Source: a virus
Virus record (IMG/VR): IMGVR_UViG_3300019854_000029
Coordinates: 1-64,000 of that record
Length of the DNA stretch: 64,000 bases
Reading direction: 5' to 3' (one strand)
Shown here: positions 2,306 to 59,911 of the stretch, piece by piece
Layout: each line of letters begins with the position of its first letter
How positions within the stretch are numbered: the stretch's first letter is position 1
Notes under the pieces: model-generated
The model's input: the letters and a program-made list of their open reading frames with translations, nothing else
The model's database searches: none
Told to the model about the DNA's origin: nothing
Position numbers and translations under genes: made by a program

Positions 2306-2320
2306 GACGAGCCTGCTTTC

Positions 2321-3811: not shown

Positions 3812-3888
3812 GACGGGGCCTCCAATTCTTTTGGGTGGAGCGATTGTCTTACCGCTAGGAAATGTTTCCTCTCGCCGCGTGAACATGG

Positions 3889-3937
3889 TTAAAAAATCCG
3901 GTCCCACGCGCTGTGCTCAACAGACGCATGGGACCGG
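3889..3937 (-). terminator. Rho-independent terminator after A3
   Basis: 9-bp stem CCGGTCCCA (3898-3906) / TGGGACCGG (3929-3937). On the minus strand it is followed by a U6 run (A-run 3891-3896 on plus). Confidence 0.7.
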
Positions 3938-3974
3938 GGATGAACTATTCGGATTTTCCGAACGGTTGGGCCTG

Positions 3975-8017: not shown

Positions 8018-8044
8018 AATTGCCTCCATTATTGGCGTGTTTAT

Positions 8045-8138: not shown

Positions 8139-8140
8139 AG

Positions 8141-8231
8141 CGGAGCGAGTGGGAGTCGAACCCACGGAACGAGTTGTTTCCCGTTCACTTCATTAGCAGT
8201 GAAGCCCTTTCGGCCACTCAGGCACCGCTCC
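8141..8231 (-). tRNA. tRNA-Ser (anticodon GCU), class II, CCA not encoded
   Basis: The 91-nt manual fold has acceptor GGAGCGG/TCGCTCC (one G.U) and a 3-bp D stem with a GG loop. The anticodon stem is CTTCA/TGAAG with loop CTGCTAA. A long variable arm forms a GAACGGG/CTCGTTC stem. The T arm is GTGGG-TTCGACT-CCCAC and the discriminator is G. Confidence 0.9.
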
Positions 8232-12888: not shown

Positions 12889-13362
12889 GCTTAGTGTCAC
12901 CTCTCTACTCAAGCCCCACACTAGGGGCAAAGAAAGTTGCTAACCTACAACACTCGAAAACATGGGGGAGAGGGCATAAAAAAGCGTGAACCGCACGGCC
13001 CATCGAGGCTAAGACCGCGCGGCTCACGCCGTGTATTTATCACTGTGAAAAAACTGGAAGCAACACAACCGCCAGCACTCACATAACTAAGCCTACAGCC
13101 ACCACCATGTTCTGTCAGGAACACGCCTATAAAGCACGAGGCCCGCGCGGCCCACCAGAAGTGGAGGGGGCACCGCGCGAGCCTTAAAACGACACAAACA
13201 CAAGGAAAATGAGGAAACCCCGTGCCCATGTCGCCATGCGATCTCAATACAGAGGACACGAAACACGATCATCGCCACCGCGTTTCTTGTTCTCACACGT
13301 AAGCATACAAGCAACACGCCGTAACGCAAATCACTTTACTGAGTAAAGACTGTAAATAGGCG

Positions 13363-13449
13363 AAAAAAATCAGGCCCGCAACAGTAGCGACCCAAAAAGC
13401 CAACTGTCACGGACCTGAAAGCTGCTAGGATTAGCAGCACCAAGAAACT
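13363..13449 (-). ncRNA. candidate small RNA (~87 nt): 7-bp hairpin + 15-bp terminator hairpin + U7
   Basis: On the minus strand, GCUGCUA-AUCC-UAGCAGC occupies 13438->13421. A 15-bp helix follows (13417-13403 / 13385-13371) with three G.U pairs that would be A.C mismatches on the plus strand. U7 (13369-13363) comes next. The 5' end is inferred from the promoter at 13456-13484. Confidence 0.4.
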
Positions 13450-13455
13450 AGAGCC

Positions 13456-13484
13456 AATATAGCACATTCCCTTAACAGTGCGAA
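13456..13484 (-). promoter_or_regulatory. sigma-70-type promoter for the candidate sRNA
   Basis: Minus strand: -35 TTCGCA (13484-13479), 17-nt spacer, extended -10 TGcTATATT (-10 hexamer at 13461-13456). Confidence 0.35.
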
Positions 13485-13820
13485 GCCTTTGGAAGCCTGC
13501 GAAAGCTGGTTGTCTACTGGGGGGCCAGGAGTACAGGAATCTCACGACCTCCCCACCGACTGACACTCGGTGCGTCCCCGGTTGTGCGGGATTTTTTAAC
13601 GATCTGCAAAACAGCGAGCCTATCCCCGTATGGTGATGTGCGGGGGCGAAGGGGTGCCACGGCTCGATTCAACCGCTCACACAGATACAAAGCGGTTGGG
13701 TGTGTCTAACAAACCAGTGAGATTACCGGAGTTTGCAGAATATGCCGCCACCGGTTGGGAGTAATGCCCCGGCCCCTACGACGACGCTATACGTGACGAG
13801 AAAAGTTTGGGTTGATTCGT

Positions 13821-13891
13821 AGTGCCTCTAAGAGTCTTAGCTTTACAGCGAGTTTTAACCGCTGTTTTTAGCTGAGATGATTAGAGGCACT
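13821..13891 (+). ncRNA. 71-nt rod-like three-helix hairpin (structured RNA or ssDNA element)
   Basis: Helix 1 is 11 bp (13821-13831 / 13881-13891). Helix 2 is 7 bp (13836-13842 / 13870-13876) with one U.G pair that is valid only on the plus strand. Helix 3 is 6 bp (13845-13850 / 13860-13865) with a 9-nt loop. Confidence 0.35.
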
Positions 13892-13992
13892 TCTCTGCCC
13901 ACTGCCGCTCAAAGAAAAGAGATGAGTAACGCTGTAGAACAGTGAGCAGTTAACTACAGTTCACGTGTTCTTAAGTTTCTATTAAGAGTTCC

Positions 13993-14083
13993 CGCTTCCG
14001 CTGTTGGTTGCTTCCCGCTCATGGCTGCACAAACGTTCAACTCCGCGCTCAAAGTTCCAAAGCGTGAGTGCAGCGTGGAAGCG
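13993..14083 (+). other. second nested-helix structured element
   Basis: Three nested helices: CGCTTCC (13993-13999) / GGAAGCG (14077-14083), GCTGCAC (14024-14030) / GTGCAGC (14068-14074), and CGCGCT (14044-14049) / AGCGTG (14061-14066). The last has a G.U valid only on the plus strand. A 12-bp bulged hairpin follows at 14140-14174. Confidence 0.3.
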
Positions 14084-14207
14084 TAAAGAAGCGAAACGAT
14101 AACGCAGTAACTCAGCCACAGTAGAGGGAAGAGAGAAAAGCACAAGCAAAGCCACCCGGAGGGGCTTTTTGTGCCTAAAACGCTTTAACTTGAGGCGTTT
14201 AACAGTC

Positions 14208-15170
14208 ATGTACGGGACTTTATTTGTCTATGTGGGACCTATGGGCGCGGGTAAGACGCAGGATGCGGCTTCATGTTTTCTGGATTCCAGTGTTGTCTCA
14301 CTGAGTGCTATTCACCGTGAAGCGTATGGCTCCCCGGTGGTTGATCGCCAGTATAAAGACGCAGTGACGCGGCGCGCGTTTAAGAAACTATTCGCATTGT
14401 TAGAGCGCGGTTTGGACGCGGTTTTCATAGCGCCTAACTGTTCTCGCATGTCTCGCGCGCACTTATATCGGGAGGTGAAAGCACGGTTCCCGGGCGTGCG
14501 GGTGGTTGTCGTGTTGGTGCATGTACCGCTCGCAGAGGCTATCAAGCGTTCTAACAATGTGAGCGCGTCCCATGTTCGAGACGAGTATCTAGGGCTGCAA
14601 ATCCCGCGCGTAGGCGTGGACTGCGACACGTTCACGCTGCAAACACCCGACTTCTCGGCCTACCTGCCGGAAATCAACCACTCGTACCTCGCGCCTCATA
14701 ACAGCCCGTATCACGTGGAGTCCATTGCTGAGCATGTTGCCCTCACGGTACATAACGCGCATAAAGACACCACCCGGCCCGCATTAGTGGATATCGCAGC
14801 GTTCCACGACCTCGGTAAGAGCGTCGCACGCACAGCACAAGACCTATCCAGACCATCATCGGCGTATATCGCATCCATTTACGGCAGTCACGACCAGTAC
14901 GCAGGCCATGAGAACGTGAGCGCCGTCTACTGGATGATCGCCCACAAGGACTGTCTTGACGCGCACGCCTTGTTCGTTGCGGAAGCAATCTTCCACCATA
15001 TGCAAGCCCATCGTGGTTTTACCGACAAGTACATCAACCGCCACCACCTCACCGGCGATCTGTTGGAAACCGCACGCGCTTTCGCGCAAATCGACAGTAG
15101 CTCGAAAATCGTAGACAAAGACATCTTGGACACGTACATGAGGCTGCGGGCAGCGGAAAAACAAGGCTAA
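14208..15170 (+). CDS. P-loop kinase (polynucleotide-kinase/AAA_33-like) fused to an HD phosphohydrolase domain (K1)
   Basis: The track start is TTG 14169; ATG 14208 gives MYGTLFVYVGPMGAGKT (Walker A). The C-terminal half carries NSPYHVESIAEH ... AAFHDLGKS ... HHMQAH, which are HD-domain metal ligands. It is a paralog of 22838-23821. Confidence 0.8.
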   Translation: MYGTLFVYVGPMGAGKTQDAASCFLDSSVVSLSAIHREAYGSPVVDRQYKDAVTRRAFKKLFALLERGLDAVFIAPNCSRMSRAHLYREVKARFPGVRVVVVLVHVPLAEAIKRSNNVSASHVRDEYLGLQIPRVGVDCDTFTLQTPDFSAYLPEINHSYLAPHNSPYHVESIAEHVALTVHNAHKDTTRPALVDIAAFHDLGKSVARTAQDLSRPSSAYIASIYGSHDQYAGHENVSAVYWMIAHKDCLDAHALFVAEAIFHHMQAHRGFTDKYINRHHLTGDLLETARAFAQIDSSSKIVDKDILDTYMRLRAAEKQG

Positions 15171-15245
15171 TAAACCCTGTCTAGCCGTCTCAACAGAGGT
15201 TACACGTTAAGAGCTTCCAAACTATCCGCAATAGGAGAAACCGTT

Positions 15246-16013
15246 ATGAACGATCAGAAGCCTTATCCTCTGCCGCTTTGCCCCGACGTTCAAGCAGTAG
15301 CCAACTGGTCAAGTAACGAACTAACAGGGACTTTGACGTTCTCAGACCCCGCATTCAAGCCCGTCCACTTCATCACCAAACCTATTGACCGTCATGGGCT
15401 TATCCGTGAAGTGACTTACCTGACGCACGATGACATGGTTATCGGAACAAGGTTTGTTTCTCGCTTTTACCTGGCTAACCCATTGACTGCGCGAGATTTA
15501 CTTCAAGGTCTTGAAATTAAGTCCCCGACATCTGTTCGTTGCTGCCCCAAGAAAAGTTGCGACGACGACAACTATAAAAAGGGCTTCTTTTTCAAGGTCC
15601 GTAAAGCTATCGGCGTACACAAACCACACTATCCTGATACAGAAATCGAAAAGGATACCTACCGCCAGATTGCCGAACAGTGTTTCAACCTGTTTCACGC
15701 ACTAAAAGGCGGGTTTATCACGCCAGAAGAAGCGGGCAACTGCAAGTGGCTCATCGACGTAAAAATGCTCTCATTCACAGCGGAATTTAACGGTATTTTC
15801 TCCAATATCGACAAGAAGAACCTCCCGCCACACGTGCGACTTGTCGCGTACTACGACATTCTCGACACGCCCGCTTTGTACGACGAGTGCTCATTCGCGA
15901 GAAGCGTGTTCCTGTGGGCCGCACAAGGCTACACGCAAGAAATGATCGCGTTCTTCATGGGAGTCAGCGCCAGCAAAATCTCCCGCATCCTCAACCAGCC
16001 ACTCGACGAGTAG
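15246..16013 (+). CDS. HTH superfamily, E-type, N-terminal part of a split gene (E0-N)
   Basis: 255 aa; aligns with residues 1-~250 of E1-E3 (LTGTLTFSDPAFKPVHF versus RGTLVFSDSRYKPISV). It ends with the HTH WAAQGYTQEMIAFFMGVSASKISRIL. Confidence 0.8.
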   Translation: MNDQKPYPLPLCPDVQAVANWSSNELTGTLTFSDPAFKPVHFITKPIDRHGLIREVTYLTHDDMVIGTRFVSRFYLANPLTARDLLQGLEIKSPTSVRCCPKKSCDDDNYKKGFFFKVRKAIGVHKPHYPDTEIEKDTYRQIAEQCFNLFHALKGGFITPEEAGNCKWLIDVKMLSFTAEFNGIFSNIDKKNLPPHVRLVAYYDILDTPALYDECSFARSVFLWAAQGYTQEMIAFFMGVSASKISRILNQPLDE

Positions 16014-16024
16014 GAAACACGCTC

Positions 16025-16363
16025 ATGACAGCCTCAAAAGAATCCACGCTTTTCCCCGTTGGAACAATCTTCGTTGATCGCGGTAATTACCGGACAGGGG
16101 ACAGCGTTGTCTTGTTCTACCAAGTGGTGCGCTGCACGGAGCGAACCGTGTGGTACGCGCAGATCACCTCGCACGTAGTCGCCTACGACTCGGCAACACT
16201 GAGGAAAGACCTTGTTCCGATTGCGGACACCTACAACCCGCGCGTAAAGCCCCACATGGCACGCATCCTCCGAGAGAAAAGATTCCACTGCGTGAAGTCA
16301 CCAACCGGAGACATAATGCTCCCGTGGGACGGACATCCCGTCAGCCAATACTACGGATACTGA
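16025..16363 (+). CDS. stand-alone copy of the E-family C-terminal domain (E0-C)
   Basis: The ATG at 16025 lies within track ORF 15887-16363, with AGGAA 8 nt upstream. STLFPVGTIFV...FYQVVRCTERTVWYAQ matches SKLYP[IT]GTI..T...[FY]WQV[IV]R[CS]T[EK][RK]TLW[VM]Q at the C-termini of E1-E3. Confidence 0.75.
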   Translation: MTASKESTLFPVGTIFVDRGNYRTGDSVVLFYQVVRCTERTVWYAQITSHVVAYDSATLRKDLVPIADTYNPRVKPHMARILREKRFHCVKSPTGDIMLPWDGHPVSQYYGY

Positions 16364-16369
16364 CACGCA

Positions 16370-16414
16370 AAAAGCAGTGGCCCACCAAGGAAACCAAGGT
16401 GGGCCACTGCTTTT
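16370..16414. terminator. bidirectional terminator between convergent genes
   Basis: 17-bp perfect stem AAAAGCAGTGGCCCACC / GGTGGGCCACTGCTTTT with an 11-nt loop. A/T runs flank it on both sides. Confidence 0.85.
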
Positions 16415-16418
16415 ACCG

Positions 16419-17642
16419 TTAGGACTCAAAACTCCTTAGCGCGCTTCGTCCCTCTCGGGCGAGAAGCCACGCGATAGCCGCAACCTTCCGGTAGCGCCCG
16501 TCATAGTCATCATGGGCCGCGCCAAGAGAAAGGTTCTTATCCGACAAGTGCGACTCCTTGAACAAGGAAACAAAGGCGTATTCCTCATCGTTACGGGGAT
16601 ACCGGTTAGCTATCGACCTAATCGAATCATCCGCAAGAATCATGCCCTGATAGCCGGGGATACTGCCTCCGGCTACAAGACGCACAGCAACCTTCTCAAA
16701 CGCCTTCCACGGGGCAACAATGCCCGTCCGAGAGTGTTCCGCGCAGGCAGCGTCATACATCATTTCCGCGATCTCCCCGGACGTAACCGGATCGCCCTCA
16801 ATGAGGTCGAACTCTGAGCGAGTGTCATCATACGCGAACCACGAGTTAAGAACACGCCCGTTTTCACGCGAAGTCGCCGCATCCACCTCATCGGAACGAC
16901 AGAACCCAGCGGACGAGAACGCAGGCAAAGAACCTTCTTTACGCGACTGCGCTTCCACGAACCTACGGGCCTTCATGAACTCACGCAGGAAAGCCTCAGT
17001 GGGGTCGTGGACATCTTGCGACAAAACAAAAGACGAACTCGCCGCCATCTTGTATGCCCACCACGCGGTATGCACGGCAGTGCGCACTACCGCAGTGTCC
17101 CGAGAGTCACTAGGCGGCGCTTCAGGAATGCTGATACTCCCCGCATATGCACTATCTTGCTTATGCGTTGCGTACACCTGCGGTTCGCGCACATCAGCGC
17201 TCCCATACAACGACAATGAGAAACCATTCTCCACGCCAAGCGTTTCCCGAATCCTACGGATAGTGCGACGGCACCGCATCGCAATACGGTTCACATCTTC
17301 CTCAGTCAACCCCCACATGATTGTGCAGTTCAACAAAACCGCCGCATAGTACGTCATGGCCGTCGCGTTAGCAGGCTTGAACTGTTCGGGGAAAGTGAGA
17401 GAAATATCGGGCTCAATCGCCGCGAGGTCTCCCTCTATCTTCCACTTCAGCTTGTTCATGCTTGTCGCAGCCTGAACCGAGTACGTTTGCCGTCTAGGAC
17501 TACTAGAAACCTCTAGAACCCCCACAAAACGCGGCTTCTCCCAGTCCGGCTCCTTGTAGAACACATTCCAAAAACGCCGATCACCATAAGGGCGCGGCCT
17601 AGACACAGGCTTCAACGTGAGCCTTTCAGGTAATAACAGCAT
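16419..17642 (-). CDS. family B paralog, long form (B6)
   Basis: 407 aa. The N-terminus MLLLPERLTLKP and the central IAMRCRRTIRRI...LSLYG align with the ~210-236-aa B family. It has an extra ~190-aa C-terminal extension. Confidence 0.8.
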   Translation of the reverse strand: MLLLPERLTLKPVSRPRPYGDRRFWNVFYKEPDWEKPRFVGVLEVSSSPRRQTYSVQAATSMNKLKWKIEGDLAAIEPDISLTFPEQFKPANATAMTYYAAVLLNCTIMWGLTEEDVNRIAMRCRRTIRRIRETLGVENGFSLSLYGSADVREPQVYATHKQDSAYAGSISIPEAPPSDSRDTAVVRTAVHTAWWAYKMAASSSFVLSQDVHDPTEAFLREFMKARRFVEAQSRKEGSLPAFSSAGFCRSDEVDAATSRENGRVLNSWFAYDDTRSEFDLIEGDPVTSGEIAEMMYDAACAEHSRTGIVAPWKAFEKVAVRLVAGGSIPGYQGMILADDSIRSIANRYPRNDEEYAFVSLFKESHLSDKNLSLGAAHDDYDGRYRKVAAIAWLLAREGRSALRSFES

Positions 17643-17740
17643 GATTATCGTCCTCTCTGGTTGAGACTTATGCAGTTGATGTGAAATAGCTGCCGCAGCC
17701 TAATTGGATTAGATTGCGACAGCCGTCTTTCTTCTAGGGT

Positions 17741-18082
17741 TCATCGAACACGTCTCCATAAGCCAGAACGTTCAGGCTCCCTAAACGCCTGTACGATCTC
17801 TCTCGCTATCGTGTCCTCGTTCGACCAGTGATTCACGCCGCGAACCATATTTTGGCGACCTGCTTCACGCCATACGCCGCGATAAATCATTCCCGGCTTA
17901 CCGCGCTCTCTTACACAGCAAGACTCTTCCGTGTCCACCTCGATAACGAGGCCGGTAGCCGGGTCAGTGATGTAGCCGTAGCAACCGCGCGCAACGCCGT
18001 TAATACGGATGTTCTTCATGTCCACCTGTAAGGCTGGGTTAAGCCGGTGAATCTGATTACGGAACTTAACGACGAGAAGCAT
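17741..18082 (-). CDS. hypothetical protein
   Basis: 113-aa ORF with AAGGAAAGGA 7 nt upstream of ATG 18082. It is tightly spaced inside the B-family operon. Confidence 0.6.
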   Translation of the reverse strand: MLLVVKFRNQIHRLNPALQVDMKNIRINGVARGCYGYITDPATGLVIEVDTEESCCVRERGKPGMIYRGVWREAGRQNMVRGVNHWSNEDTIAREIVQAFREPERSGLWRRVR

Positions 18083-18100
18083 TGGGAAGTCCTTTCCTTG

Positions 18101-18811
18101 TCATAGCTCAAGAAGAGCCGGGTCTTTTGGTTTCTCGCCGCGATACATGGCAAGAGCGTCAGCATGTGCGCGACTGTAGCGAGTAATAAACGTTTGCCGA
18201 GGCGTTGCAGTCGGGCCTTCCATTGCGCTTTGTAGGCACGCGGTTCGGTACGCAGAACATGACGCGGCAACCAACTGCCGTAACAGAGTGCGAACTTCTT
18301 CCGGCGACCAGTCAAGCAACCTCACGTGAACCGGGATAAGCGTAAACGCATCCTCATAATCGAGGCGGGGCACCTCGCCAACACTGATCGCCTCACCAAA
18401 GAAGTCGAACAAGATAACGCCACTGTCAGGCACGCGGCCTTGCTCAACCATGCGCGCCATAGTGCGGCGAATACGAGTCGCCACACGCTTCACGTCATCA
18501 GCGTTAAAGCCCATCCAGTTCGGAACAGACGACATCATTAACGCAGCATGGCGGGCAATAGTGCGATCAACGGTCGGGAACGCGAGATCACCCTCGTCGA
18601 AATACCGCACCAATAGGGGAGACCTAGCCGCTTGTGCGCTTACACGCCCCGCACGCATAGGAAACAGTTCAACCTCAAGCTCACCCAACGGGCGAACCGG
18701 ATTACCACCGTTGCGCACGTCGAGACTACGGAAGTAGTAACTGACCTTGAAGCGGCGACCGGAACGCGAGTCCACCTCACGTAGCCGAATGTTCTCTGGG
18801 TTGTAAATCAC
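18101..18811 (-). CDS. family B paralog (B1)
   Basis: MIYNPENIRL N-terminus, VATRIRRTMARM, FDFFGE. Confidence 0.8.
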   Translation of the reverse strand: MIYNPENIRLREVDSRSGRRFKVSYYFRSLDVRNGGNPVRPLGELEVELFPMRAGRVSAQAARSPLLVRYFDEGDLAFPTVDRTIARHAALMMSSVPNWMGFNADDVKRVATRIRRTMARMVEQGRVPDSGVILFDFFGEAISVGEVPRLDYEDAFTLIPVHVRLLDWSPEEVRTLLRQLVAASCSAYRTACLQSAMEGPTATPRQTFITRYSRAHADALAMYRGEKPKDPALLEL

Positions 18812-18819
18812 TTCTACTC

Positions 18820-19329
18820 CTACGATTGCGAATCCAATGAGATGAGCTGGCTGAGGACGCTCTGTGAGCCTTCGATCTCCTGTACCTGAGCGACAAGCAC
18901 CTCTGCGAGTCTCTTTGCCGCCACGTATTGCGTTGATTCAACGCCGTAGCGGCTCGCAATGTCATCAAGGCGCGCAGGGATGGTCGTCGCGCTACCGTCC
19001 TTGGATGTCAGCATGTCCGCCAGATTGAGGACCAGAAGCTCTGGTGATTGGTAGGAGCTATTTGGCTCCCCATGATGGAAAATCTCAGCCCAGTACGCAA
19101 AACCGAGAGAACGCAGCAGGTCGCCACCAAGTTCCTCGTGCTCGGATTGTTCATGGGCGAACTGATAACCAATGTCGTGCAGGTATCCCATGACGAACAT
19201 TTCTCGACACTTCTCGTCCGACCACCCGAACAGGGCGCACCCCAGTTCGGAAGCCCTCACACCTACACCGCGACAGTGGCGCAGCCGGTTCTCGTCCATG
19301 CCAATTGCAGGCATCTCATCAGTCATCAT
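18820..19329 (-). CDS. HD-domain phosphohydrolase (small, stand-alone)
   Basis: 169 aa. HCRGVGVRASELG ... GYLHDIGY ... H..H matches the H...HD...H(D) pattern of the HD superfamily. Confidence 0.8.
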   Translation of the reverse strand: MMTDEMPAIGMDENRLRHCRGVGVRASELGCALFGWSDEKCREMFVMGYLHDIGYQFAHEQSEHEELGGDLLRSLGFAYWAEIFHHGEPNSSYQSPELLVLNLADMLTSKDGSATTIPARLDDIASRYGVESTQYVAAKRLAEVLVAQVQEIEGSQSVLSQLISLDSQS

Positions 19330-19379
19330 GCAATCCTCTGCATTTCGTCGGCCAAGGCAATCACTTTTTGCTCCTACGG

Positions 19380-20030
19380 TTACAGGTCCAAGCGAGGCTC
19401 ATCAAGGCGCTCTAGTCTCTGAATTACTGCCTCATACTTGTACTTAAAGAGAACGTCACTATCCTTTCCTTGCGGGCGACTCTGAGTGACAGTGCGACAT
19501 GCTTGCTGGAAAGCAAGCCAAGAGCGAGCGACCGTCACCATAACTGAACGGCGAATTTCCTCATCGCTACGGCCACGCCAGTTAGTCCGTAACTGCATGA
19601 AGCATGAATCAAACGGCGCACCGGTTAACTGTTCTCCAAACAGGTCAAACCTAGCCGTTGAGCTAGAGTTTTTTGCGAGGGTGAGACCGCGCCGAATACG
19701 AGTAACGATACGAGCAATATGCTCACAGTCAATCTTGTTAGCTAAGTCAACGTTCGTGACGGCACTCATCAAAGCCGCAGTGTGATAGCGCAAATGGGCG
19801 GGCGTGTCAGGGAATGTGAAATAGTCCAGATCAAAGTAGCGACTGAGGGAGTGGTCTAGATCGTAAGGCTTCACAATCATGTAGCCGGTTTCCGGGGATA
19901 ACCGTCCCACTTGCATTTCCCCAAGCAACGTAGGGGACTTACGCTCTGGTGCGTAAACGACACGATAAATCGTGTATGTATCACCGCATTCAATTGGCGC
20001 AAGTTTAATGAATCTAGGGTCGTAAATCAC
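19380..20030 (-). CDS. family B paralog (B2)
   Basis: MIYDPRFIKL, VTRIRRGLTL, FDLFGE. Confidence 0.8.
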   Translation of the reverse strand: MIYDPRFIKLAPIECGDTYTIYRVVYAPERKSPTLLGEMQVGRLSPETGYMIVKPYDLDHSLSRYFDLDYFTFPDTPAHLRYHTAALMSAVTNVDLANKIDCEHIARIVTRIRRGLTLAKNSSSTARFDLFGEQLTGAPFDSCFMQLRTNWRGRSDEEIRRSVMVTVARSWLAFQQACRTVTQSRPQGKDSDVLFKYKYEAVIQRLERLDEPRLDL

Positions 20031-20046
20031 GCTCTGTCCCCACTTT

Positions 20047-20673
20047 TCAGAGCTGGACCGACGCGGGTAGGCCGTTCGTGGTCATTGGTGCGCTCATGAG
20101 CGTCGAGCAGCGTTCGCTATAGCTATTCCTGAACGTCGTGTACAAGGTGTTACGGTCAACGCCAGCAGGAACAGCCTCTACCACCTCGGCAGCTTCCTTA
20201 AACGCCGCCCACATGCAGAACACGAGGTGACGAGTGAACATGCGAGAGCGTTCCTCGTCCATGAGCATCAAGTTCGAGTCCATCACGAAATGTCCGAACG
20301 CATACGTTTCTAGAGCCTCACGCTGAGTGATTTCCTTACCGAACAGCGTGAAAATAACCGGCCTATGAAGCCCCTCGTTTTCGATAACGACCTTCATGTG
20401 GCGACGAACATTACGAGCCGCGACAGTCGCATCCTCAACAGTGAACGTGGCGGCGGTAAGGAGCTGAGCGACAGTGAACCGCAAGGCTTCCTTATCAGCA
20501 AACAATGAGTCCGTCGTGTACTCACACAACGCAGTCCCATTGGGGAGCTTCACGCGAATACGTCCCATGTCAGCGTCGGTCTCAAACCGGGCAACCTTCT
20601 TCTTCCCCTCAGCCCGGAAGTTATAAAACACGTCTCGGCCCTTCAAGGACACGCGGTCAGGGTAGTAGAGCAT
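20047..20673 (-). CDS. family B paralog (B3)
   Basis: MLYYPDRVSL, ARNVRRHMKV, FTLFGKE. Confidence 0.8.
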   Translation of the reverse strand: MLYYPDRVSLKGRDVFYNFRAEGKKKVARFETDADMGRIRVKLPNGTALCEYTTDSLFADKEALRFTVAQLLTAATFTVEDATVAARNVRRHMKVVIENEGLHRPVIFTLFGKEITQREALETYAFGHFVMDSNLMLMDEERSRMFTRHLVFCMWAAFKEAAEVVEAVPAGVDRNTLYTTFRNSYSERCSTLMSAPMTTNGLPASVQL

Positions 20674-20744
20674 GGTTACAGTCTCTTTCTTTATAGGTTT
20701 CTGGTCTTGACTGTTAAACGCCCACTAAACGGCGCACACCACCG

Positions 20745-21440
20745 TTAAAGGTCAGCCGGAATCCGATCATTACGGTCCAAGTTGTACTGGCTGATCTGAA
20801 AATCGTAGTCCACGCTGTACATCTCGTTATAGGCGCGTGAAGCGTCTATGCCACGGAAGTTCAACGACGCGGCGCACCCGTTTTCGTGCGCCCGCCAAGC
20901 CGCATAAACCATGTTCATGAGCCGCTTACGGTTCCCCCCAGACTGGTGAATCAAGTCCGTGCGAGCCATGAACGTCCCCGGCGCGGTCTGCGCGAACACA
21001 TCCAGTTCGCCGGGCCGATAGTAGTGCAGCATCCCACCCAACAGGTCGAACACGATGTCCAAGGGCATACCGTTTTCCCTCTGGTCTGCTCGGCGCATAA
21101 AATCACGCGCCCGGCTTGCAACAAGCATCAAGTCCTCCCGCGTGTACCGCCACGGGGCGACAAGCGGGAACATGAGGCACGCGACCATACGCAAATCCGG
21201 CTTACGTTCAGCGACATAAATGTTCCACGCGAACGACGCTTGCGGGTGGAAGCCCGTAGTCTTACCCGTCGCAGTCACTTGAATCGTGGACGCACCCACT
21301 TGACGCAACGTCAAAACCCCAAGACTCAACTTAGGGTTTCCGGGCCTCTGGTAGGACACAACAATGTCCCCCTGATACGTCCCCCACACGTTATCTTTCA
21401 AGTCAGGGGACAAGATCACGTTCCGAGGATGGAAAAACAC
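20745..21440 (-). CDS. family B paralog (B4)
   Basis: MFFHPRNVIL, ASRARDFMRR, FDLLGG. Confidence 0.75.
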   Translation of the reverse strand: MFFHPRNVILSPDLKDNVWGTYQGDIVVSYQRPGNPKLSLGVLTLRQVGASTIQVTATGKTTGFHPQASFAWNIYVAERKPDLRMVACLMFPLVAPWRYTREDLMLVASRARDFMRRADQRENGMPLDIVFDLLGGMLHYYRPGELDVFAQTAPGTFMARTDLIHQSGGNRKRLMNMVYAAWRAHENGCAASLNFRGIDASRAYNEMYSVDYDFQISQYNLDRNDRIPADL

Positions 21441-21459
21441 TCTAAGCCTCCAAAGCGGC

Positions 21460-21471
21460 CAATTTAGTTAC
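21460..21471 (+). promoter_or_regulatory. Recurring upstream element, core-only copy (upstream of D1)
   Basis: CAATTTAGTTAC differs at one base from CAATTTAGGTAC (the 8.3-kb copy). It lies 90 nt upstream of ATG 21561. Confidence 0.35.
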
Positions 21472-21560
21472 CGATAACAGCTTGAAACGCGCGGAATAAC
21501 AGCGGAAACACATTAAAACAAGACGTTTTTAACCACTAGCACCTAGTGAAGGAGCAAGTC

Positions 21561-22193
21561 ATGCAGCTCTCAGACGCATTCGATCTCGGTAAGGCCACCA
21601 CGGCCACACTCAAACGCCAGAAAGTAACACTCGACCAAGTACGAGCCGACACTGGGCTGCGAGCCAAGATCACAGCAAGCGTCCTGCGCAAAGCCATTAA
21701 AGACGGCTTCCTGTGGGACGGCCTGAAAGTGCGTGTCCAAGCGTGGGGGCCAGCGGTTCTTGTTGAACTGTGGGCGCTCGCTGAGCCGGACAATCAGAAG
21801 CAGCTATGTGGCTTATTTTCAATTGTCCAAAGCGAAAGCGGCAGGGCCGTTGTCAATATCGCGCCAGAACTAGAAATCAGTAGGCAACGCGCGAACATTA
21901 TTCTCCGCAACCTCACGTCCCCCCAAGGCCAACCACCGTTGAAAACCGACCTTGGTCTCTACGTTGGCTACGGGACTCGCCCCAGTGACGGGAACGCCAC
22001 TACGCCACGCTACCCAGCGGACATGCCCGAAGCAGCCAGCGCAGCGCTCCTAGCGTTCCCGCAAGACATGTCAGAACGCCCCTTAGTGGCAGGCAGTCGC
22101 GTATTTATAGTCCGCGAGTGGGACAGTATCGTTCGCGCCAGTGTCTTGAGCCTACGTTTCCTCAATGATGGGCTTATTGTCTGTTCCCGCTAA
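21561..22193 (+). CDS. family D paralog 1 (unknown function)
   Basis: The track start is GTG 21546; ATG 21561 has GAAGGAG 6 nt upstream. It shares FLW[DE] and EISR[QH]RA..IL with 22218-22823. Confidence 0.75.
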   Translation: MQLSDAFDLGKATTATLKRQKVTLDQVRADTGLRAKITASVLRKAIKDGFLWDGLKVRVQAWGPAVLVELWALAEPDNQKQLCGLFSIVQSESGRAVVNIAPELEISRQRANIILRNLTSPQGQPPLKTDLGLYVGYGTRPSDGNATTPRYPADMPEAASAALLAFPQDMSERPLVAGSRVFIVREWDSIVRASVLSLRFLNDGLIVCSR

Positions 22194-22217
22194 GGTTCGT
22201 GAAAGACACTCGTATTT

Positions 22218-22823
22218 ATGCCACACCAGTCGAAAAGACCTTTTAAGCGCTCATTCAATCTTGGTGTCGTTCAAGCTGTCGCGCTCAATGAGCTTGGTTT
22301 AACTATCGAGCAGGCGCGACAGTCGTTGCACGCTTCTTACTACGTCGCTAACCGAGTGCTTATTGAAGCCATCAGGCAAAACTTTCTATGGGAAAAAATG
22401 ACCTCTTCGGTTTCTAAAAAGCGCGATTTTCTTGATGTGGCCTTGCGGAAAAAGAAAGGCCCTCTCTACGACTACGTGTACGTTGAACGCCAGAACGGAG
22501 CGTTTCTAACGCCGCTACCGTGCGTGGAAATTGAGATATCCCGACACCGGGCGAAAGCGATTTTGCAGGCCGTCCTCACCACGCATGAAATGACGTTCCC
22601 CATCCCTTCCGAGGTGCGTATCGCGCTAGGAGATCGAACCAAGCCCAAGCCCCGAGAAATCCGCAGCCCGTTCACCTTGCAGGAAATCATGTACGCGCGG
22701 CGACGTAAGACACTCAACGGGAACATGCTCGTCTACACGCCGCAAGACCGTTTTAACATCCTTACGGGCGCTGCCGGAGCATTAACTTACAGCCATACAA
22801 CCGGATTCTTGTACCGCCCGTAG
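22218..22823 (+). CDS. family D paralog 2
   Basis: 201 aa. IRQNFLWEKM and EISRHRAKAILQAV align with D1. Confidence 0.75.
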   Translation: MPHQSKRPFKRSFNLGVVQAVALNELGLTIEQARQSLHASYYVANRVLIEAIRQNFLWEKMTSSVSKKRDFLDVALRKKKGPLYDYVYVERQNGAFLTPLPCVEIEISRHRAKAILQAVLTTHEMTFPIPSEVRIALGDRTKPKPREIRSPFTLQEIMYARRRKTLNGNMLVYTPQDRFNILTGAAGALTYSHTTGFLYRP

Positions 22824-22837
22824 AAAGGCAGGCTCTC

Positions 22838-23821
22838 ATGCCAGCGCTTTATATCCTCATCGGCCCAGCGGGGGTCGGTAAGACAAGCCTTGTGAACAGG
22901 ATTAGCGCCGGTAATGTCGTGTCTACAGACGCTATTCGCATCGAACGATACGGTTCCCTCACGGAAGGCAACAAACATAACCCGCAAGTATTCAAGGCTG
23001 CTTACAGTTACATTCACACGCTGCTGGACATGGGACAAGACGTGTTCTTTGACGCGACGAACATTAGGCGACTCTTACGCGCCGATCTGTATCAGGACGT
23101 GAAGAAACGTCACCCTAATGTTCCCGTCATCGCGCTCATCATTCATAAGCCTCTCGCTCAGATTCTTGCCCAGAACGCTTTACGTATGGGGGACGCTCGG
23201 GTACCTGAAGAAGCTATCCGCTACATGTACCTGCACTTGGATATTCCGCGCCTCGGAGTAGACGCAGACGCAGTAGAACTGCAATGCCCCGCGTTCGACG
23301 AGTACATTCCCGAAATGACGCTCAACATTGACGCACCCCACCGCAACCCCTACCACGTGGAAACAATCGCGAAACACCGCGAGCGCGCCATACAGATCGC
23401 AGCGAGCGGCCCATACGCAGACAACCCCGCGTTAGCTCACGCAGCCGCCTACATTGACCTCGGTAAACCCGTCGCACGCACCCCACAAGACACGTCCACG
23501 CCATCAGGCGCTTACGCAGCGGCCCACTGTGGCGGCTACGACATGTACGACTGCTACGAGAAAGTCAGCGCCCTCTACTTCCTCATCGCACACAAAAACG
23601 CGCTCACCCCCTACACGTGGCACGTAGCCGAAAGCATCTTCCAACACGTCCACGCGCACAGTGGCTTCACGAAACGCTACGCCGCCACACACCACCTCAC
23701 GCGCGACGTGATAGCCACAAGCAAACAACTCGCCTCCATCGACCAACAAGCCAGCCTCACCAACCCGCAGGTACTCAACACCTTCAAGCACCTGCAACTA
23801 GCCGAAAGGAAAACAGCGTAA
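22838..23821 (+). CDS. P-loop kinase / HD-like fusion (K2) with a degenerate HD dyad
   Basis: MPALYILIGPAGVGKTS (Walker A) and FFDATNIRR (PNK/AAA_33-like). The C-terminal half is colinear with K1, but FHDLGK is replaced by YIDLGK. Its stop overlaps the start of the next gene (TAATG). Confidence 0.8.
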   Translation: MPALYILIGPAGVGKTSLVNRISAGNVVSTDAIRIERYGSLTEGNKHNPQVFKAAYSYIHTLLDMGQDVFFDATNIRRLLRADLYQDVKKRHPNVPVIALIIHKPLAQILAQNALRMGDARVPEEAIRYMYLHLDIPRLGVDADAVELQCPAFDEYIPEMTLNIDAPHRNPYHVETIAKHRERAIQIAASGPYADNPALAHAAAYIDLGKPVARTPQDTSTPSGAYAAAHCGGYDMYDCYEKVSALYFLIAHKNALTPYTWHVAESIFQHVHAHSGFTKRYAATHHLTRDVIATSKQLASIDQQASLTNPQVLNTFKHLQLAERKTA

Positions 23822-24891
23822 TGGCACGCGATACTGATATCGCTCAGGTCCCGACCAACCCTAGCGTCACTGTCAGACTTGAGTGGGAAGAAAAAGACGA
23901 ACGCGGAACACTTGTTTTCAGTGACTCGCGGTATAAGCCGATCAGTGTCGAGGTGGAAGAACTTAAAGGAACTCACCAGCCGATCATTCGCATCATCTAC
24001 TACCGTGGCGGCAACGACTATGCGCGGTATGTCAGACCAAAGTCCGGCGCACCATTAAACGCGCAAAGCATCATGGCAGGCATTGAAGTAACACCGGACA
24101 GAATGCGCTCTGTTCAGCGCATGATTGGGCTGAAGAAGATTTTCTTCTACAAGACTGTATCTCTCATTAAGAACGGCCCGTTCGACGGTCACCCTGAGTT
24201 CAAGAGGCTCAGGACACTTGCAGACGAAATTGCGCGTTGGGCGTTCCAAGTCTATGAAGAATACGGTGTTAGGCACGATGAAGCGGCAATGTGTGACTAT
24301 CTCGCTGCGGAGGTAGCAAGGCTTGGCGAAATGCCGCAACAGCCGTTGGTAAGCCAACGTAATCTACGCGCATCCATCACCTACCAGCAGTTCTTAAAAA
24401 CCCCCGGCCTCATTGACGACCTAGACGCACACGACACCGTGCTCTACTGCCACGCGCGCGACATGAGCGTCAACTTCATTTCGTTCCTACTCGCACTCCC
24501 CAAGGAAGAAGTGAAAGACATCATCAAGGAGAGCCGACGGGCAGGAAAGAAGCCTCGCGCAACGGGGGAGAGTGGTGAGTCAAAGCTCTATCCCACTGGG
24601 ACAATCCTCGTGACCTCATGGAGCTATGAGAGAACAACTGTCTCTTTCTGGCAGGTTGTTCGCAGTACCGAGAAAACCCTCTGGGTTCAGCGAATCCGCG
24701 TCACAGCGACAGTCAACACTCCGACATACAAGGAGCTAATGCCCGTCATGCCCCCAGAACCAGTTGACGACACCGTGTACCAGTGCCGAATTAACCTCCG
24801 GTTCGGACGAAATACCCCTATCTGCATTCAGAACGCGCGCGCATACGTCTGGGAGGGTACGCCCGCGCAAGCGTCCGGCGATTATTCTTAA
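23821..24891 (+). CDS. HTH superfamily, E-type, full length (E1)
   Basis: ATG 23821 lies inside track ORF 23617-24891. MARDTDIAQVP...VRLEWEEKDERGTLVFSD aligns with E2/E3. The HTH is FISFLLALPKEEVKDIIKE, and the C-terminal domain is SKLYPTGTILVT...FWQVVRSTEKTLWVQ. Confidence 0.8.
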   Translation: MARDTDIAQVPTNPSVTVRLEWEEKDERGTLVFSDSRYKPISVEVEELKGTHQPIIRIIYYRGGNDYARYVRPKSGAPLNAQSIMAGIEVTPDRMRSVQRMIGLKKIFFYKTVSLIKNGPFDGHPEFKRLRTLADEIARWAFQVYEEYGVRHDEAAMCDYLAAEVARLGEMPQQPLVSQRNLRASITYQQFLKTPGLIDDLDAHDTVLYCHARDMSVNFISFLLALPKEEVKDIIKESRRAGKKPRATGESGESKLYPTGTILVTSWSYERTTVSFWQVVRSTEKTLWVQRIRVTATVNTPTYKELMPVMPPEPVDDTVYQCRINLRFGRNTPICIQNARAYVWEGTPAQASGDYS

Positions 24892-24930
24892 CCAACAGCA
24901 ACCATCTAACAACCGAAAGGCAACAGGACG

Positions 24931-26004
24931 ATGAGCCAGAAGAAAGAAACTGTCCCTCTCCACGGGTATGTCGGCGTGACCGCTGATGTTGAGTGGGAGA
25001 AAGAAGGCGAGAGCGGCAGGGTAACGTTCCACGGCACAGGTAACTTCCAAGATAAGTTCCCGCCGTTGGAGTTTAAGGTCGATCACCTTAAAGGCAGCAC
25101 CGTCTCACTCACGCGATTCACTTATTTCCTTAACGGGAAAGAAAAAGCGCGCTTCGTTGAGGACATGAGAGAAGGGGAAACTGTCACTGCGAACATGGTC
25201 GAGTTCTACGCCAGTTTGTACCTTGAAGGCAGGTCACAGTTCCCGAGTTCCTACAAGCAAATGTTTTCTCACAAGGCATTCGTGTACCTCTGCAAGGGGC
25301 CATACGCGCGGTTTGTCGATTGCCGTCCAGGACTATCTACTTTGGTGCGCAAAGTCGCAGAGTGGGCAACACACATCCTAGAGACGCGCGGACCCCGATG
25401 TGAAATAACCGGAATCTACGATTACAAGAGGAAAGACGTCCTAGAGATTCAAGACGGCAACGTTACTTTCACCAAAACAATGGAAGAAATGGGCCTCCTC
25501 CCCATTCACTTCCCCTCGCTCGTGAACACGCCGGGGTGCTTCTTCCCGCACCTAAGCGTAGAGAGCAACGCTTTCGCAGCCGCCGCACTCGGAGCCGAAA
25601 CAAAAGACATCGCATGGCTACTGTCAATTTCAGAAGAACAAGCCAGAGCATTCAGCGCCCCCGCGCGCAGAATATGGCTAGACCCACGAAACGAGTCGAA
25701 ACTTTATCCCATTGGGACAATCTTCATGACCGCGCGCCCTATGGCATCCGATCAGGTGCTTCTTAGGTACTGGCAAGTGGTCCGCTGCACGAAAAGAACC
25801 CTCTGGATGCAAGAGCTACAAGCCGCAGGAGACCGCCAGACAGGACGATATCTCCCCGTGCGCGACACTATGAAGAATGACGCTATCTACGAGTGCCGCA
25901 TCAACCTGAAAGCCGCAGTCGGGGCACCCATCCGCATCGACGGGGATATCGCAACCATCTGGGCCAGGAAAGTATTCACAGAGGACGCTCATCGCACTGT
26001 TTAG
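24931..26004 (+). CDS. HTH superfamily, E-type (E2)
   Basis: MSQKKETVPL...VEWEKEGESGRVTFHG; AAAALGAETKDIAWLLSISEEQ; SKLYPIGTIFMT...YWQVVRCTKRTLWMQ. Confidence 0.85.
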   Translation: MSQKKETVPLHGYVGVTADVEWEKEGESGRVTFHGTGNFQDKFPPLEFKVDHLKGSTVSLTRFTYFLNGKEKARFVEDMREGETVTANMVEFYASLYLEGRSQFPSSYKQMFSHKAFVYLCKGPYARFVDCRPGLSTLVRKVAEWATHILETRGPRCEITGIYDYKRKDVLEIQDGNVTFTKTMEEMGLLPIHFPSLVNTPGCFFPHLSVESNAFAAAALGAETKDIAWLLSISEEQARAFSAPARRIWLDPRNESKLYPIGTIFMTARPMASDQVLLRYWQVVRCTKRTLWMQELQAAGDRQTGRYLPVRDTMKNDAIYECRINLKAAVGAPIRIDGDIATIWARKVFTEDAHRTV

Positions 26005-26074
26005 TCGCGCGAAACTATCCGACGATTACTCCTAGCCAAACACAACCATTTAGCACGAGAAAGGCAATAGCCCA

Positions 26075-27121
26075 ATGAGTCAGAAGAAAGAAACCGTCCC
26101 CCTCAGCAGATATGCCGGGGTAATCGCTGTTGTCGAGTGGGAAGAAGAAGGGAAAAGCGGAAAACTCAATTTCCACGGCGCAAGCGACCTCCTGCCGTAT
26201 GAGTTCAAGATTGAGCACCTTAAAGGCACGCATATTCCACTCGCACGGATTTCCTATCTCCTCAATGGGAAAGAAAAAGCACGCTTTGTTGTAACCGCAC
26301 AAAACGGCGTTGACCTAGACACTCTCACGGGATACGCAGTTAACGCCAGTAGGGGAGACTCGCAGGTTCCAAAAACATTGTTCAGCAAAGTCAGCGCTTA
26401 CGTGTCTCACGTGGGGCCATACAAAGAGAGCTTCCCTAGCAACTTAGATAAGTATGAGGCGCTACGCGCAATCACAAAGTGGGCAGATCACGTACTGAAA
26501 GCACACGGCCCACACTATGAAGTCACTGGCATCTACAACTACTCGACAGGGGAAGTTGAAGAAGCGGAAGGCTTCATCGACTTCCCGGACAAAATGCTAA
26601 AAAAGGGCTTCCCCATTTACTACCGGATGCTCTTACACACGCCGGGGTATGTCATCCCCGGCCTAGATCGGAACGACAACATAATCGCGGCTATCGCGCT
26701 CGGAATGGAACCCGAACACATTGCACGCCTGCTAGTAATGAAGGAAAAAGATGTCAGGAACATCGCCACTTGCATAGTCGAGCAAGGGGAAGCTCAAAAC
26801 GACTCGAAACTTTACCCCATCGGCACAATCTTCGTAACCGAACGCCCCATGCCCCTCGACGTAAGAATAATTAGGTTCTGGCAGGTGATTCGATGCACTG
26901 AGAGAACCCTATGGGTTCAGGAAGTACATGCTGACCAAGCTGTCCCCAGCGACCGAGATCGGTTCCCTGTACGCGACATGCCCGTGAACAACACCATTCA
27001 CATGTGCCGAATCAACCTGAAAGCCCACCGCGAGACCCCCATTCACATTGACGGGCAACTTGCAACCGTATGGGCCGGAACAGTCCTCACAAAAGACAGA
27101 CTGTGGTCATATCGCTCTTAG
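26075..27121 (+). CDS. HTH superfamily, E-type (E3)
   Basis: Shares the MSQKKETVPL start and near-identical 5' DNA with E2. Motifs: AAIALGMEPEHIARLLVMKEKD and SKLYPIGTIFVT...FWQVIRCTERTLWVQ. Confidence 0.85.
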   Translation: MSQKKETVPLSRYAGVIAVVEWEEEGKSGKLNFHGASDLLPYEFKIEHLKGTHIPLARISYLLNGKEKARFVVTAQNGVDLDTLTGYAVNASRGDSQVPKTLFSKVSAYVSHVGPYKESFPSNLDKYEALRAITKWADHVLKAHGPHYEVTGIYNYSTGEVEEAEGFIDFPDKMLKKGFPIYYRMLLHTPGYVIPGLDRNDNIIAAIALGMEPEHIARLLVMKEKDVRNIATCIVEQGEAQNDSKLYPIGTIFVTERPMPLDVRIIRFWQVIRCTERTLWVQEVHADQAVPSDRDRFPVRDMPVNNTIHMCRINLKAHRETPIHIDGQLATVWAGTVLTKDRLWSYRS

Positions 27122-27148
27122 CGACGAAAAAACGCTCTTTTCTATCGA

Positions 27149-27192
27149 AAACGGGGCGCTCAGAACACGAAATTGCTCTGAGCGCCCCGTTT
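27149..27192. terminator. bidirectional terminator
   Basis: 14-bp perfect stem ACGGGGCGCTCAGA (27151-27164) / TCTGAGCGCCCCGT (27177-27190), extended by A/T pairs. It sits between convergent genes. Confidence 0.85.
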
Positions 27193-35055: not shown

Positions 35056-35062
35056 GCAACAA

Positions 35063-59013: not shown

Positions 59014-59043
59014 CCAAACCCAACCACAACAACAGGAAAAACA

Positions 59044-59907: not shown

Positions 59908-59911
59908 AACC

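Follow-up and report, generated by a model that had tools for sequence, protein, structure and literature searches.

RNA repair sets serve as phage weapons against host RNases (PMC7824862). Pnkp and Rnl1 of phage T4 reverse the damage caused by the PrrC anticodon nuclease and, like the Pnkp/Hen1 system of Clostridium thermocellum, combine a P-loop kinase with a 3'-end phosphoesterase. The kinases of RNA repair carry an Asp-x-x-Arg (D-x-x-R) motif after the P-loop, and the Pnk proteins of T4 and C. thermocellum depend on both the Asp and the Arg (PMC3902929). In the Runella-type HD-Pnk, an HD 2',3'-phosphoesterase is joined to a 5'-OH polynucleotide kinase, and the gene overlaps that of a ligase-like neighbour. 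Here, we describe two related enzymes, K1 and K2, encoded in a 13-kb island (positions 14208-27192) of a 64,000-nucleotide stretch of DNA (the window; positions 1 to 64,000 of IMG/VR virus record IMGVR_UViG_3300019854_000029), which appears to belong to a conjugative plasmid. In addition to the K genes, the island contains a stand-alone HD gene and the paralogous families E, B and D.

The island K enzymes resemble the T4 system in their carriage on a mobile element, in the P-loop kinase with D-x-x-R (K2) and in having homologs that are fused or adjacent to RNA_lig_T4_1 ligases. They differ in that the phosphoesterase is an HD domain, not the DxDxT acylphosphatase or calcineurin-type domain of the T4 and C. 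thermocellum Pnkp proteins, in that the activities are apparently split over two half-decayed paralogs, and in that a non-ligase protein, E, stands in the place of the ligase. Compared by description, the Runella-type protein has its HD domain amino-terminal and its kinase carboxy-terminal; this order is reversed in K, whose partner is a non-ligase. The Pnk-HD proteins of Tsamsa-like Bacillus phages and the K-Rnl1 fusions of Gram-positive conjugative elements (contigs L004 and L025) are K homologs of 28-42% identity with the same kinase-then-HD order but, unlike the island K proteins, they hold both catalytic motif sets in one protein and have kept the ligase. What is new here is a duplicated, complementarily decayed and ligase-less variant of the kinase-HD healing enzymes; we show no categorically new mechanism.

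The kinase-HD pair and its relatives

The two K genes differ in the motifs that they have kept:

14208..15170 (+), K1: P-loop AAA_33 domain and HD phosphoesterase; kinase acceptor-site motifs lost, HD motif FHDLGK kept
22838..23821 (+), K2: kinase motifs kept (GPAGVGKT, D-A-I-R, DATN); HD motif altered to ID (YIDLGK)

K1 and K2 are 40.6% identical over 323 amino acids (aa; BLAST E value 2.9e-79). In both, the kinase domain is amino-terminal (approximately residues 1-135) and the HD domain carboxy-terminal (approximately 165-305). The amino-terminal halves exceed the Pfam AAA_33 cut-off and contain the P-loop GxxGxGK[ST], which reads GPMGAGKT in K1, while the carboxy-terminal halves conserve the columns H..H..(H/I)D..H..H..D in the alignment. 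The nearest solved structures, all weak matches, include the kinase domain of C. thermocellum Pnkp and seryl-tRNA(Sec) kinase.

K homologs are rare, with only six among 5.8 billion proteins and a single weak match in isolate genomes. One of the six, P0019, carries a fused RNA_lig_T4_1 domain and is encoded on an element with a MobL relaxase, a type IV secretion system coupling protein and a sortase. The same fusion occurs as one 730-aa protein on the 152-kb contig L025, and the gene directly downstream of a further homolog (P0020) encodes a 352-aa RNA_lig_T4_1 protein. In the Tsamsa-like phages, the annotation of the homologs is either polynucleotide kinase or HD protein, and genes for RNA or tRNA ligases overlap theirs or lie immediately next to them. 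Because these relatives are fused or adjacent to Rnl1-type ligases, K is assigned by sequence to a family of kinase-HD end-healing enzymes that usually pair with such a ligase.

Of particular interest is the complementary state of the two active sites. In K1, the D-x-x-R motif has become S-A-I-H and DATN has become IAPN, and the HD motif is intact. In K2, the kinase motifs are intact and the HD motif has I-D for H-D, with the remaining His and Asp columns kept. The motif states of both proteins are fixed in the relatives checked (three per gene) and are not seen in the ligase-linked outgroups, in which the kinase and HD motifs are all intact. Both genes are under purifying selection, with ratios of nonsynonymous to synonymous substitution (dN/dS) of 0.13 and 0.20. 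We read the pair as a case of complementary decay, or subfunctionalisation, in which K2 would provide the kinase and K1 the phosphoesterase. A preliminary description of this DNA, made from the letters and the open reading frames (ORFs), had seen in it a K-E pair that was amplified and diversified; complementary decay of the K pair is not simple amplification. Of the three HD-domain enzymes that it had counted, K1 and the stand-alone protein (HD169) have intact motifs, and K2 is the one that reads ID.

The same description noted that a kinase-HD gene is followed by an E gene twice, and we find this order at both K genes and in every related element. The K2 stop and the E1 start share the sequence TAATG, a one-base overlap that was likewise noted and that points to translational coupling. 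The pairing of K with E belongs to a narrow lineage only; beyond it, the partner of K homologs is an Rnl1-type RNA ligase and not E.

Families E, B and D

The E family is represented by three full-length genes and by two genes that divide its domains between them:

15246..16013 (+), E0a: separate gene for the E-family N-domain with a putative carboxy-terminal helix-turn-helix (HTH); two alleles across relatives
16025..16363 (+), E0b: E carboxy-terminal domain alone; family matching phrog_37844
23821..24891 (+), E1: full-length E with N-domain, HTH and C-domain; start overlaps the K2 stop
24931..26004 (+), E2: full-length E; highest dN/dS in the island, 0.43
26075..27121 (+), E3: full-length E; AlphaFold-modelled; absent from one relative and IS605/TnpB-interrupted in another

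E1, E2 and E3 share 27-44% identity (BLAST E values 2e-32 to 2e-93); E0a aligns to the amino-terminal part of E1 (3e-10) and E0b to the carboxy-terminal part of E1-E3 (6e-10 to 8e-9). The split into E0a and E0b is also called in related contigs (255 aa and 110-112 aa), and we therefore reject a recent frameshift as its origin. Full-length E is limited to this plasmid lineage: a search of 5.8 billion proteins returned 15 matches, all metagenomic, and isolate genomes contained no E relatives. The AlphaFold model of E3 has a mean predicted local distance difference test score (pLDDT) of 74, with residues 1-230 well predicted and the carboxy-terminal domain poorly. Foldseek found no whole-fold match to it in the PDB or BFVD, and the N-domain had no sequence match in Pfam, PHROGs, NCBIfam, PADLOC or PDB profile searches.

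Residues 199-236 (approximately) of E3 resemble a LuxR/DosR-type HTH, with local Foldseek probabilities of 0.84 and 0.69 to DesR and DosR (E values of about 1), and E0a has Pfam matches to HTH_3 and Sigma70_r4, both under the cut-off. This part of the protein is not confined to the island. Residues 182-250 of E0a, a strand and the HTH (GYTQExIA), match the carboxy termini of six other window proteins, and a profile of those six matches E0a with an E value of 3e-10. The six are encoded at 809-5468 (-) and 58156-60727 (+), carry the HTH motif GY.QE.IA and fall into two mutually related sets, one of three proteins that have about 500 aa and 27-35% identity and the other of three shorter proteins (about 280 aa); one of the larger ones (2321-3907) had no match in annotated plasmids. 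Since these paralogs share the HTH, the E-type HTH family reaches beyond the island, and paralogy does not stop at the limits 14208-27192 that were first set for it.

A profile search of 1.8 billion representative proteins found wider kin only for the last 100 or so residues of E. These kin are small proteins or carboxy-terminal domains with the motif GTI..SWGYDQTNVDFYQVVR.T.KTVW...WDGKP; they belong to no Pfam family, and 24 of the 28 match phrog_37844. E0b and the last 100 or so residues of E1-E3 thus belong with phrog_37844 and with WP_004187354, a 112-aa hypothetical protein of IncL/M plasmids of pOXA-48 size. A hidden Markov model of the family built without window sequences scores E1 at 84 bits, E0b at 63, E3 at 59 and E2 at 54. 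Members of the family are mostly stand-alone proteins of about 100 aa, whereas in E1-E3 the domain is fused to the orphan N-domain and the HTH. They occur on plasmids of pOXA-48 and IncX4 size and of Xanthomonas. Searches with a typical member matched 2,509 annotated plasmids, of which 2,327 (93%) are typed as conjugative, versus 16 phage records. Gene order was examined in one plasmid, an IncL/M plasmid of 63.6 kb and thus of pOXA-48 size. There, the neighbours of the homolog are DUF4942, Hha, DUF1380, an antirestriction gene and ssb, and this cluster stands immediately upstream of mobA/traI, presumably in the leading region.

E is therefore modular, with an orphan N-domain, an HTH that is common within this plasmid and a C-domain of conjugative plasmids, as the recurrence of the HTH in six window proteins and of the C-domain on conjugative plasmids indicates. 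Four database proteins (P0005, P0006, P0008 and P0013) are chimeras with an E1-like amino-terminal part and an E3-like C-domain, and their existence implies that E paralogs recombine at the domain boundary. We also considered E as a divergent RNA ligase and rejected it: hhalign against Rnl1 ligase gave a probability of 0.3%, Foldseek found no ligase fold for the E3 model in the PDB or BFVD, and the sole Lys-Gly pair (LKG) is not conserved in E0a. Because E fills the slot that Rnl1 occupies in the relatives and yet is no ligase, a ligase from beyond the island would have to do the sealing.

The remaining features of the island are listed below; gene content was compared among ten close relatives of the window element.

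16365..16419, hairpin I1: inverted repeat, 22-nucleotide arms with A and T runs at its sides, between the convergent K1-E0a-E0b and B operons
16419..17642 (-), B6: B-family amino-terminal part with a carboxy-terminal extension of about 170 aa
17741..18082 (-), 113-aa orphan gene: kept in all relatives; dN/dS 0.2
18101..18811 (-), B1: B family; AlphaFold model obtained
18820..19329 (-), HD169: stand-alone HD/HDIG phosphohydrolase; in 4/10 relatives
19380..20030 (-), B2: B family; window only, 0/10 relatives
20047..20673 (-), B3: B family
20745..21440 (-), B4: B family by profile only; heads the leftward operon
21441..21560, divergent intergenic region between B4 and D1: 120 bp; presumed promoters
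21561..22193 (+), D1: D family; strong constraint, dN/dS 0.05
22218..22823 (+), D2: D family; in 6/10 relatives
27149..27192, hairpin I3: inverted repeat, 19-nucleotide arms, after E3

BLAST links B1 to B2 (1.5e-9) and, weakly, to B6 and B3, and gives no link for B4. Leave-one-out profiles, with E values computed for a database size of 100, retrieve all of B1, B2, B3, B4 and B6 (1e-9 to 1e-21) and no other island gene. The amino terminus of the family is near-invariant (M-[ILF]-[YFL]-x-P-x-x-[IVL]-x-L), and B1-B4, not B6, share a carboxy-terminal tail of the type P-[AR]-x-L-[ED]-L or similar; these could be recognition or export signals. The AlphaFold model of B1 (pLDDT 68) has an amino-terminal five-stranded sheet followed by helices, and Foldseek found no fold match to it in the PDB. 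D1 and D2 are 26% identical (BLAST E value 1.7e-7). The B and D members scanned had no match in Pfam, PHROGs, NCBIfam or PADLOC (B3 and B4 were compared with Pfam only), and PDB profile searches of both families were empty. HD169 scores 26.4 bits against PF01966 (cut-off 22) and contains the motif LHDIG. The B1 and E3 models have their secondary-structure elements in the same order. A single superfamily of B, D and E is unsupported, with hhalign probabilities of at most 1.3%.

BLAST and leave-one-out profiles thus bear out the division into families K, E, B and D made in the preliminary description. Its statement that B, D and E cannot be placed holds for B, for D and for the E N-domain, which are orphan families, and the structural models of E3 and B1 that it had called for show no known fold; the C-domain of E is, however, recognisable, and its putative HTH recurs elsewhere in the window. 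The ORFs of the island lie where that description had placed them. So do the two proposed terminators (16370 and 27149), which correspond to the inverted repeats at 16365-16419, probably a bidirectional terminator, and at 27149-27192, probably a terminator. The gene arrangement also agrees with the two operons said to diverge from 21441-21560, operon structure being deduced here from gene order alone; a third unit converges on one of the two. D1 starts with ATG at 21561, with AGGAG upstream. No match to the sigma-70 consensus was found in the divergent region, and no operator-like repeated DNA motifs were found in the intergenic regions of the island. Its guanine-plus-cytosine (GC) content, 0.52-0.55, is the same as in the rest of the window, so that the island is not a compositional one.

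Upstream of K1, positions 13260-14207 form a stretch of about 950 bp with no convincing ORF that is 94% conserved in a relative. It holds an imperfect hairpin with 22-nucleotide arms (13821-13891) and has no Rfam match, and could be a promoter region, an origin or an RNA.

Carrier element and variation among its relatives

Contigs related to the window reach about 124 kb (ENA, Logan and IMG/VR); eight are from IMG/VR, which files them as viral, and the five longest of these measure 109-123 kb. Megablast against annotated phages and plasmids gave no close DNA relative. The ten largest window ORFs outside the island match no PHROG family, and no capsid, portal or terminase genes were seen in about 110 kb. 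The relatives encode a 758-aa P-loop ATPase that aligns over 89% of its length, at 31% identity, with a protein of pBTHD789-1 of Bacillus thuringiensis; an FtsK/SpoIIIE gene comes next, as it does in that plasmid. A PDB sequence search with the ATPase returned only spurious repeat matches. We take pBTHD789-1 (349.6 kb) to be pXO16. The module to which the ATPase belongs lies past the right end of the window:

L048 1-11746, L062 1-11500 and L047 19030-20775, pXO16-like module: 1,591-aa membrane protein, NlpC/P60-like hydrolase, 758-aa ATPase and FtsK/SpoIIIE protein

In addition, the window itself encodes a 1,511-aa protein with a pXO16 homolog (8395-12930), and an actin-like segregation protein of the MreB/ParM type is found in a relative just beyond the window (L037 15634-16809, +). 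From the order of the ATPase and FtsK/SpoIIIE genes, the 1,511-aa homolog, the segregation protein and the lack of PHROG matches, we conclude that the element, of about 120 kb, is probably a pXO16-type conjugative plasmid. The transfer of pXO16 (Bacillus thuringiensis israelensis, 'tip' locus) relies on an apparatus of a new kind that includes two ATPases and a hydrolase, and neither a relaxase nor an oriT has been identified for it (PMC9673590). The likeness lies in the ATPase gene followed by FtsK/SpoIIIE and in the 1,511-aa protein; pXO16 differs in that it has no match to E1 or to the E C-domain family, in that its only matches to K are generic P-loop kinases common in plasmids, and in the phylum of its host. 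To our knowledge, descriptions of this type of transfer system have until now been confined to Bacillus. The LGFP repeats, the LPXTG/TQ-ester adhesin and a GC content of about 55% make a Corynebacteriales species the probable host of our element, presumably one of the human microbiota. Two sample numbers of relatives, 7000000436 and 7000000653, look like Human Microbiome Project identifiers.

Several other genes of the element have recognisable domains. The window encodes a Phage_lysozyme2 hydrolase (35021-36274), a protein with ParB_N and HNH domains (37430-39331), a protein with six LGFP repeats and a C39-like peptidase (40276-42219), a calcineurin-like phosphoesterase (46100-46765) and the TQ-ester-domain adhesin with its LPXTG anchor (55491-57854). 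A protein with Ro60/TROVE and vWA domains (Pfam vWA_Ro60, E value 4e-11) is encoded at 6431-8029 (-), and a tRNA-Ser(GCU) gene, also on the minus strand (8140-8231), lies directly upstream of it. Bacterial Ro60 normally partners a Y RNA with a tRNA-like part. Rfam searches near the Ro60 gene and upstream of K1 found a tRNA only and no Y RNA, and the tRNA-Ser(GCU) may be a partner of Ro60 or an ordinary tRNA. Just beyond the window, a relative encodes a protein with a GmrSD_C (DUF1524-type HNH) nuclease domain (L047 16614-17360, -). IS605-family TnpB genes (OrfB_IS605 and Cas12f1-like TNB) occur in relatives at L003 10609-12063 and L047 14486-15610. About 35 kb past the right end of the window, genes for an FHA-like protein, a PP2C-type phosphatase and a Ser/Thr kinase stand side by side, and a gene for a 1,354-aa surface protein comes next (relative L069, 554-4058). 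Assigned by eye from sequence motifs, they look like an actinobacterial-style signalling cassette on the plasmid.

Among the ten relatives, the core B genes, D1 and E1 are always present, whereas HD169 and D2 come and go and B2 is absent throughout. E3, where it is not absent, is cut in one relative to a 199-aa fragment by IS605/TnpB. E0a occurs as two alleles (96% versus about 50% identity) although the neighbouring genes are 91-99% identical. Every island gene with comparable orthologs, that is, all except B2, is under purifying selection (dN/dS 0.05-0.43), with strong constraint on the B genes and D1 (0.05-0.13), and no gene-wide positive selection was found, on E or B included. Because the presence of HD169, B2, D2 and E3, the E0a alleles and the E chimeras vary, the island changes via gain, loss, allele swapping and recombination and not via gene-wide positive selection. 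This variation and the recombination of E fit a conflict-type accessory region, the pattern that the preliminary description had recognised; a role in defence, anti-defence or exclusion, which it had also put forward, is still only suggested, and PADLOC found no defence system.

Proposed function and competing explanations

We propose, with a probability of roughly 0.45, that the island is an RNA-repair-centred counter-defence or establishment module of the conjugative plasmid. In this proposal, an ancestral bifunctional enzyme would have been duplicated, each copy losing one activity, and the work would now be divided. K2 would phosphorylate 5'-OH ends, and K1, together with HD169 where present, would remove 2',3'-cyclic or 3'-phosphates. 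Together they would restore ligatable ends on RNA, most likely tRNA, that ribotoxins or anticodon nucleases had cut, whether these came from the recipient cell or from a competing element, and a ligase from outside the island would do the sealing. E would be a three-part binding protein, made up of the orphan alpha/beta N-domain, the LuxR/sigma-r4-like HTH and a small beta-rich domain, and E, B and D may all be non-enzymatic establishment or counter-defence factors that bind nucleic acids or proteins. Only the repair enzymes can be assigned a function; we infer the substrates, the way in which K1 and K2 share the work and whatever part B, D and E may play. The Ro60/TROVE-vWA gene beside a tRNA gene in the same window gives the proposal a further link to RNA.

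A number of observations weigh against this proposal. No RNA ligase of any Pfam family was found in the 50 window ORFs scanned, nor an Rnl1-type ligase by tblastn with three query sequences in the window and about 45 kb of flanking DNA of relatives, and the repair pathway as seen is therefore incomplete. The changes in the K2 HD domain and in the K1 kinase are judged by motifs alone. The K-E linkage counts as roughly one observation, since all relatives that show it are close kin, about 85-99% identical. The island resembles the leading-region anti-defence islands (Samuel et al. 2024, PMC11541004) in being a cluster of small, mostly uncharacterised genes on a conjugative plasmid, and through the E C-domain homolog that lies beside an antirestriction gene and ssb in the IncL/M region. 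It differs from them, however, in what it lacks: PADLOC found no known defence or anti-defence gene in it, and scans of its proteins (Pfam and NCBIfam) found no Ard, Acr (anti-CRISPR), SSB, PsiB or methyltransferase. Moreover, its genes lie on both strands, whereas the leading-region genes are reported on one strand only (PMC11541004). Leading-region islands adjoin oriT, in the DNA that enters the recipient first; neither a relaxase nor an oriT was identified in our element. Finally, dN/dS is below 0.5 in every gene, and the HTH paralogs elsewhere in the window would suit plain transcription regulators equally well.

Such a plain regulatory role of the HTH families is the main rival. It would make B, D and E ordinary plasmid transcription regulators or DNA-binding maintenance proteins and K1 and K2 unrelated, co-transcribed neighbours, an account that we consider doubtful although it deserves attention. 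The HTH of E, the six other window proteins that end in the same HTH, the strong constraint on B and D1 and the presence of core B, D1 and E1 in all relatives are what would be expected of regulators, but the intergenic DNA lacks operator-like repeats, the searches revealed no HTH in B or D, and in the IncL/M plasmid examined the E C-domain homolog is surrounded by presumed establishment genes. The coupling of K2 to E1 and the recurrence of K followed by E also speak against K being an unrelated neighbour. The opposite emphasis, in which K and E form a new two-component repair or counter-defence module with an orphan binding protein replacing the ligase as the obligate partner, seems to us unlikely. 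E might then direct K to particular damaged RNAs, disarm the nuclease that had cut them or bring in a sealing activity of the host; by extension, the E C-domain family would be an establishment or anti-defence domain.

The remaining rivals concern the nature of the element and the direction in which the enzymes act. A phage or phage-plasmid, with the island as an early host-takeover or anti-defence region comparable to T4 Pnkp/Rnl1 against PrrC, would agree with the length and viral filing of the eight IMG/VR contigs, with the Phage_lysozyme2 protein and tRNA gene of the window, and with the K homologs and Ro60/TROVE proteins of large phages (PMC7824862). We consider it quite improbable in view of the missing PHROG matches and virion genes, the LPXTG adhesin of the window, the pXO16-like ATPase, FtsK/SpoIIIE protein, NlpC/P60-like hydrolase, large membrane proteins and actin-like segregation protein of the relatives, and the distribution of the E C-domain, which is overwhelmingly one of conjugative plasmids. 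A defence or exclusion island that shields the host or the plasmid from phages or rival plasmids, in which K would be the effector, an NTP-dependent HD nuclease, with E, B and D as sensors, likewise has little probability. The HD half of K1 does match Cas3-HD profiles weakly (PADLOC E value 1.1e-6; NCBIfam far under the cut-off), and gene content varies among close relatives as it does in defence islands. These weak matches were, however, all that PADLOC returned for ten island proteins, and the fusion or adjacency of K relatives to RNA ligases, together with the polynucleotide-kinase acceptor motif D-x-x-R kept in K2, argues for repair and not attack. AAA_33 proteins and zeta toxins belong to the same P-loop kinase group, and K could on that basis be a zeta-like kinase toxin with E as its HTH antitoxin, a toxin-antitoxin-like arrangement to which the adjacent gene pairs, the one-base overlap of K2 and E1 and the HTH of E would correspond. 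This we find barely plausible: K1 is conserved despite its degenerate kinase site, E is about 350 aa long and lies downstream of K and not upstream, K homologs have ligases as partners, and no match to zeta, HipA or Fic families was found.

If the proposed repair role is correct, the plasmid carries an RNA-repair counter-measure in two half-enzymes with no ligase, which would be a natural test of the two healing steps. It would also strengthen the case that RNA-cutting defences act on conjugative plasmids as well as on phages. The E C-domain is found on some 2,500 plasmids, mostly conjugative ones and including the backbones of clinically important carbapenemase plasmids, and its fusion partners in this island offer a first experimental handle on the family. 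In addition, our analysis suggests that the pXO16-type transfer apparatus is also present in human-associated actinobacteria, on elements that databases file as viral. Both the pairing of K with E and the plasmid type merit experiments.

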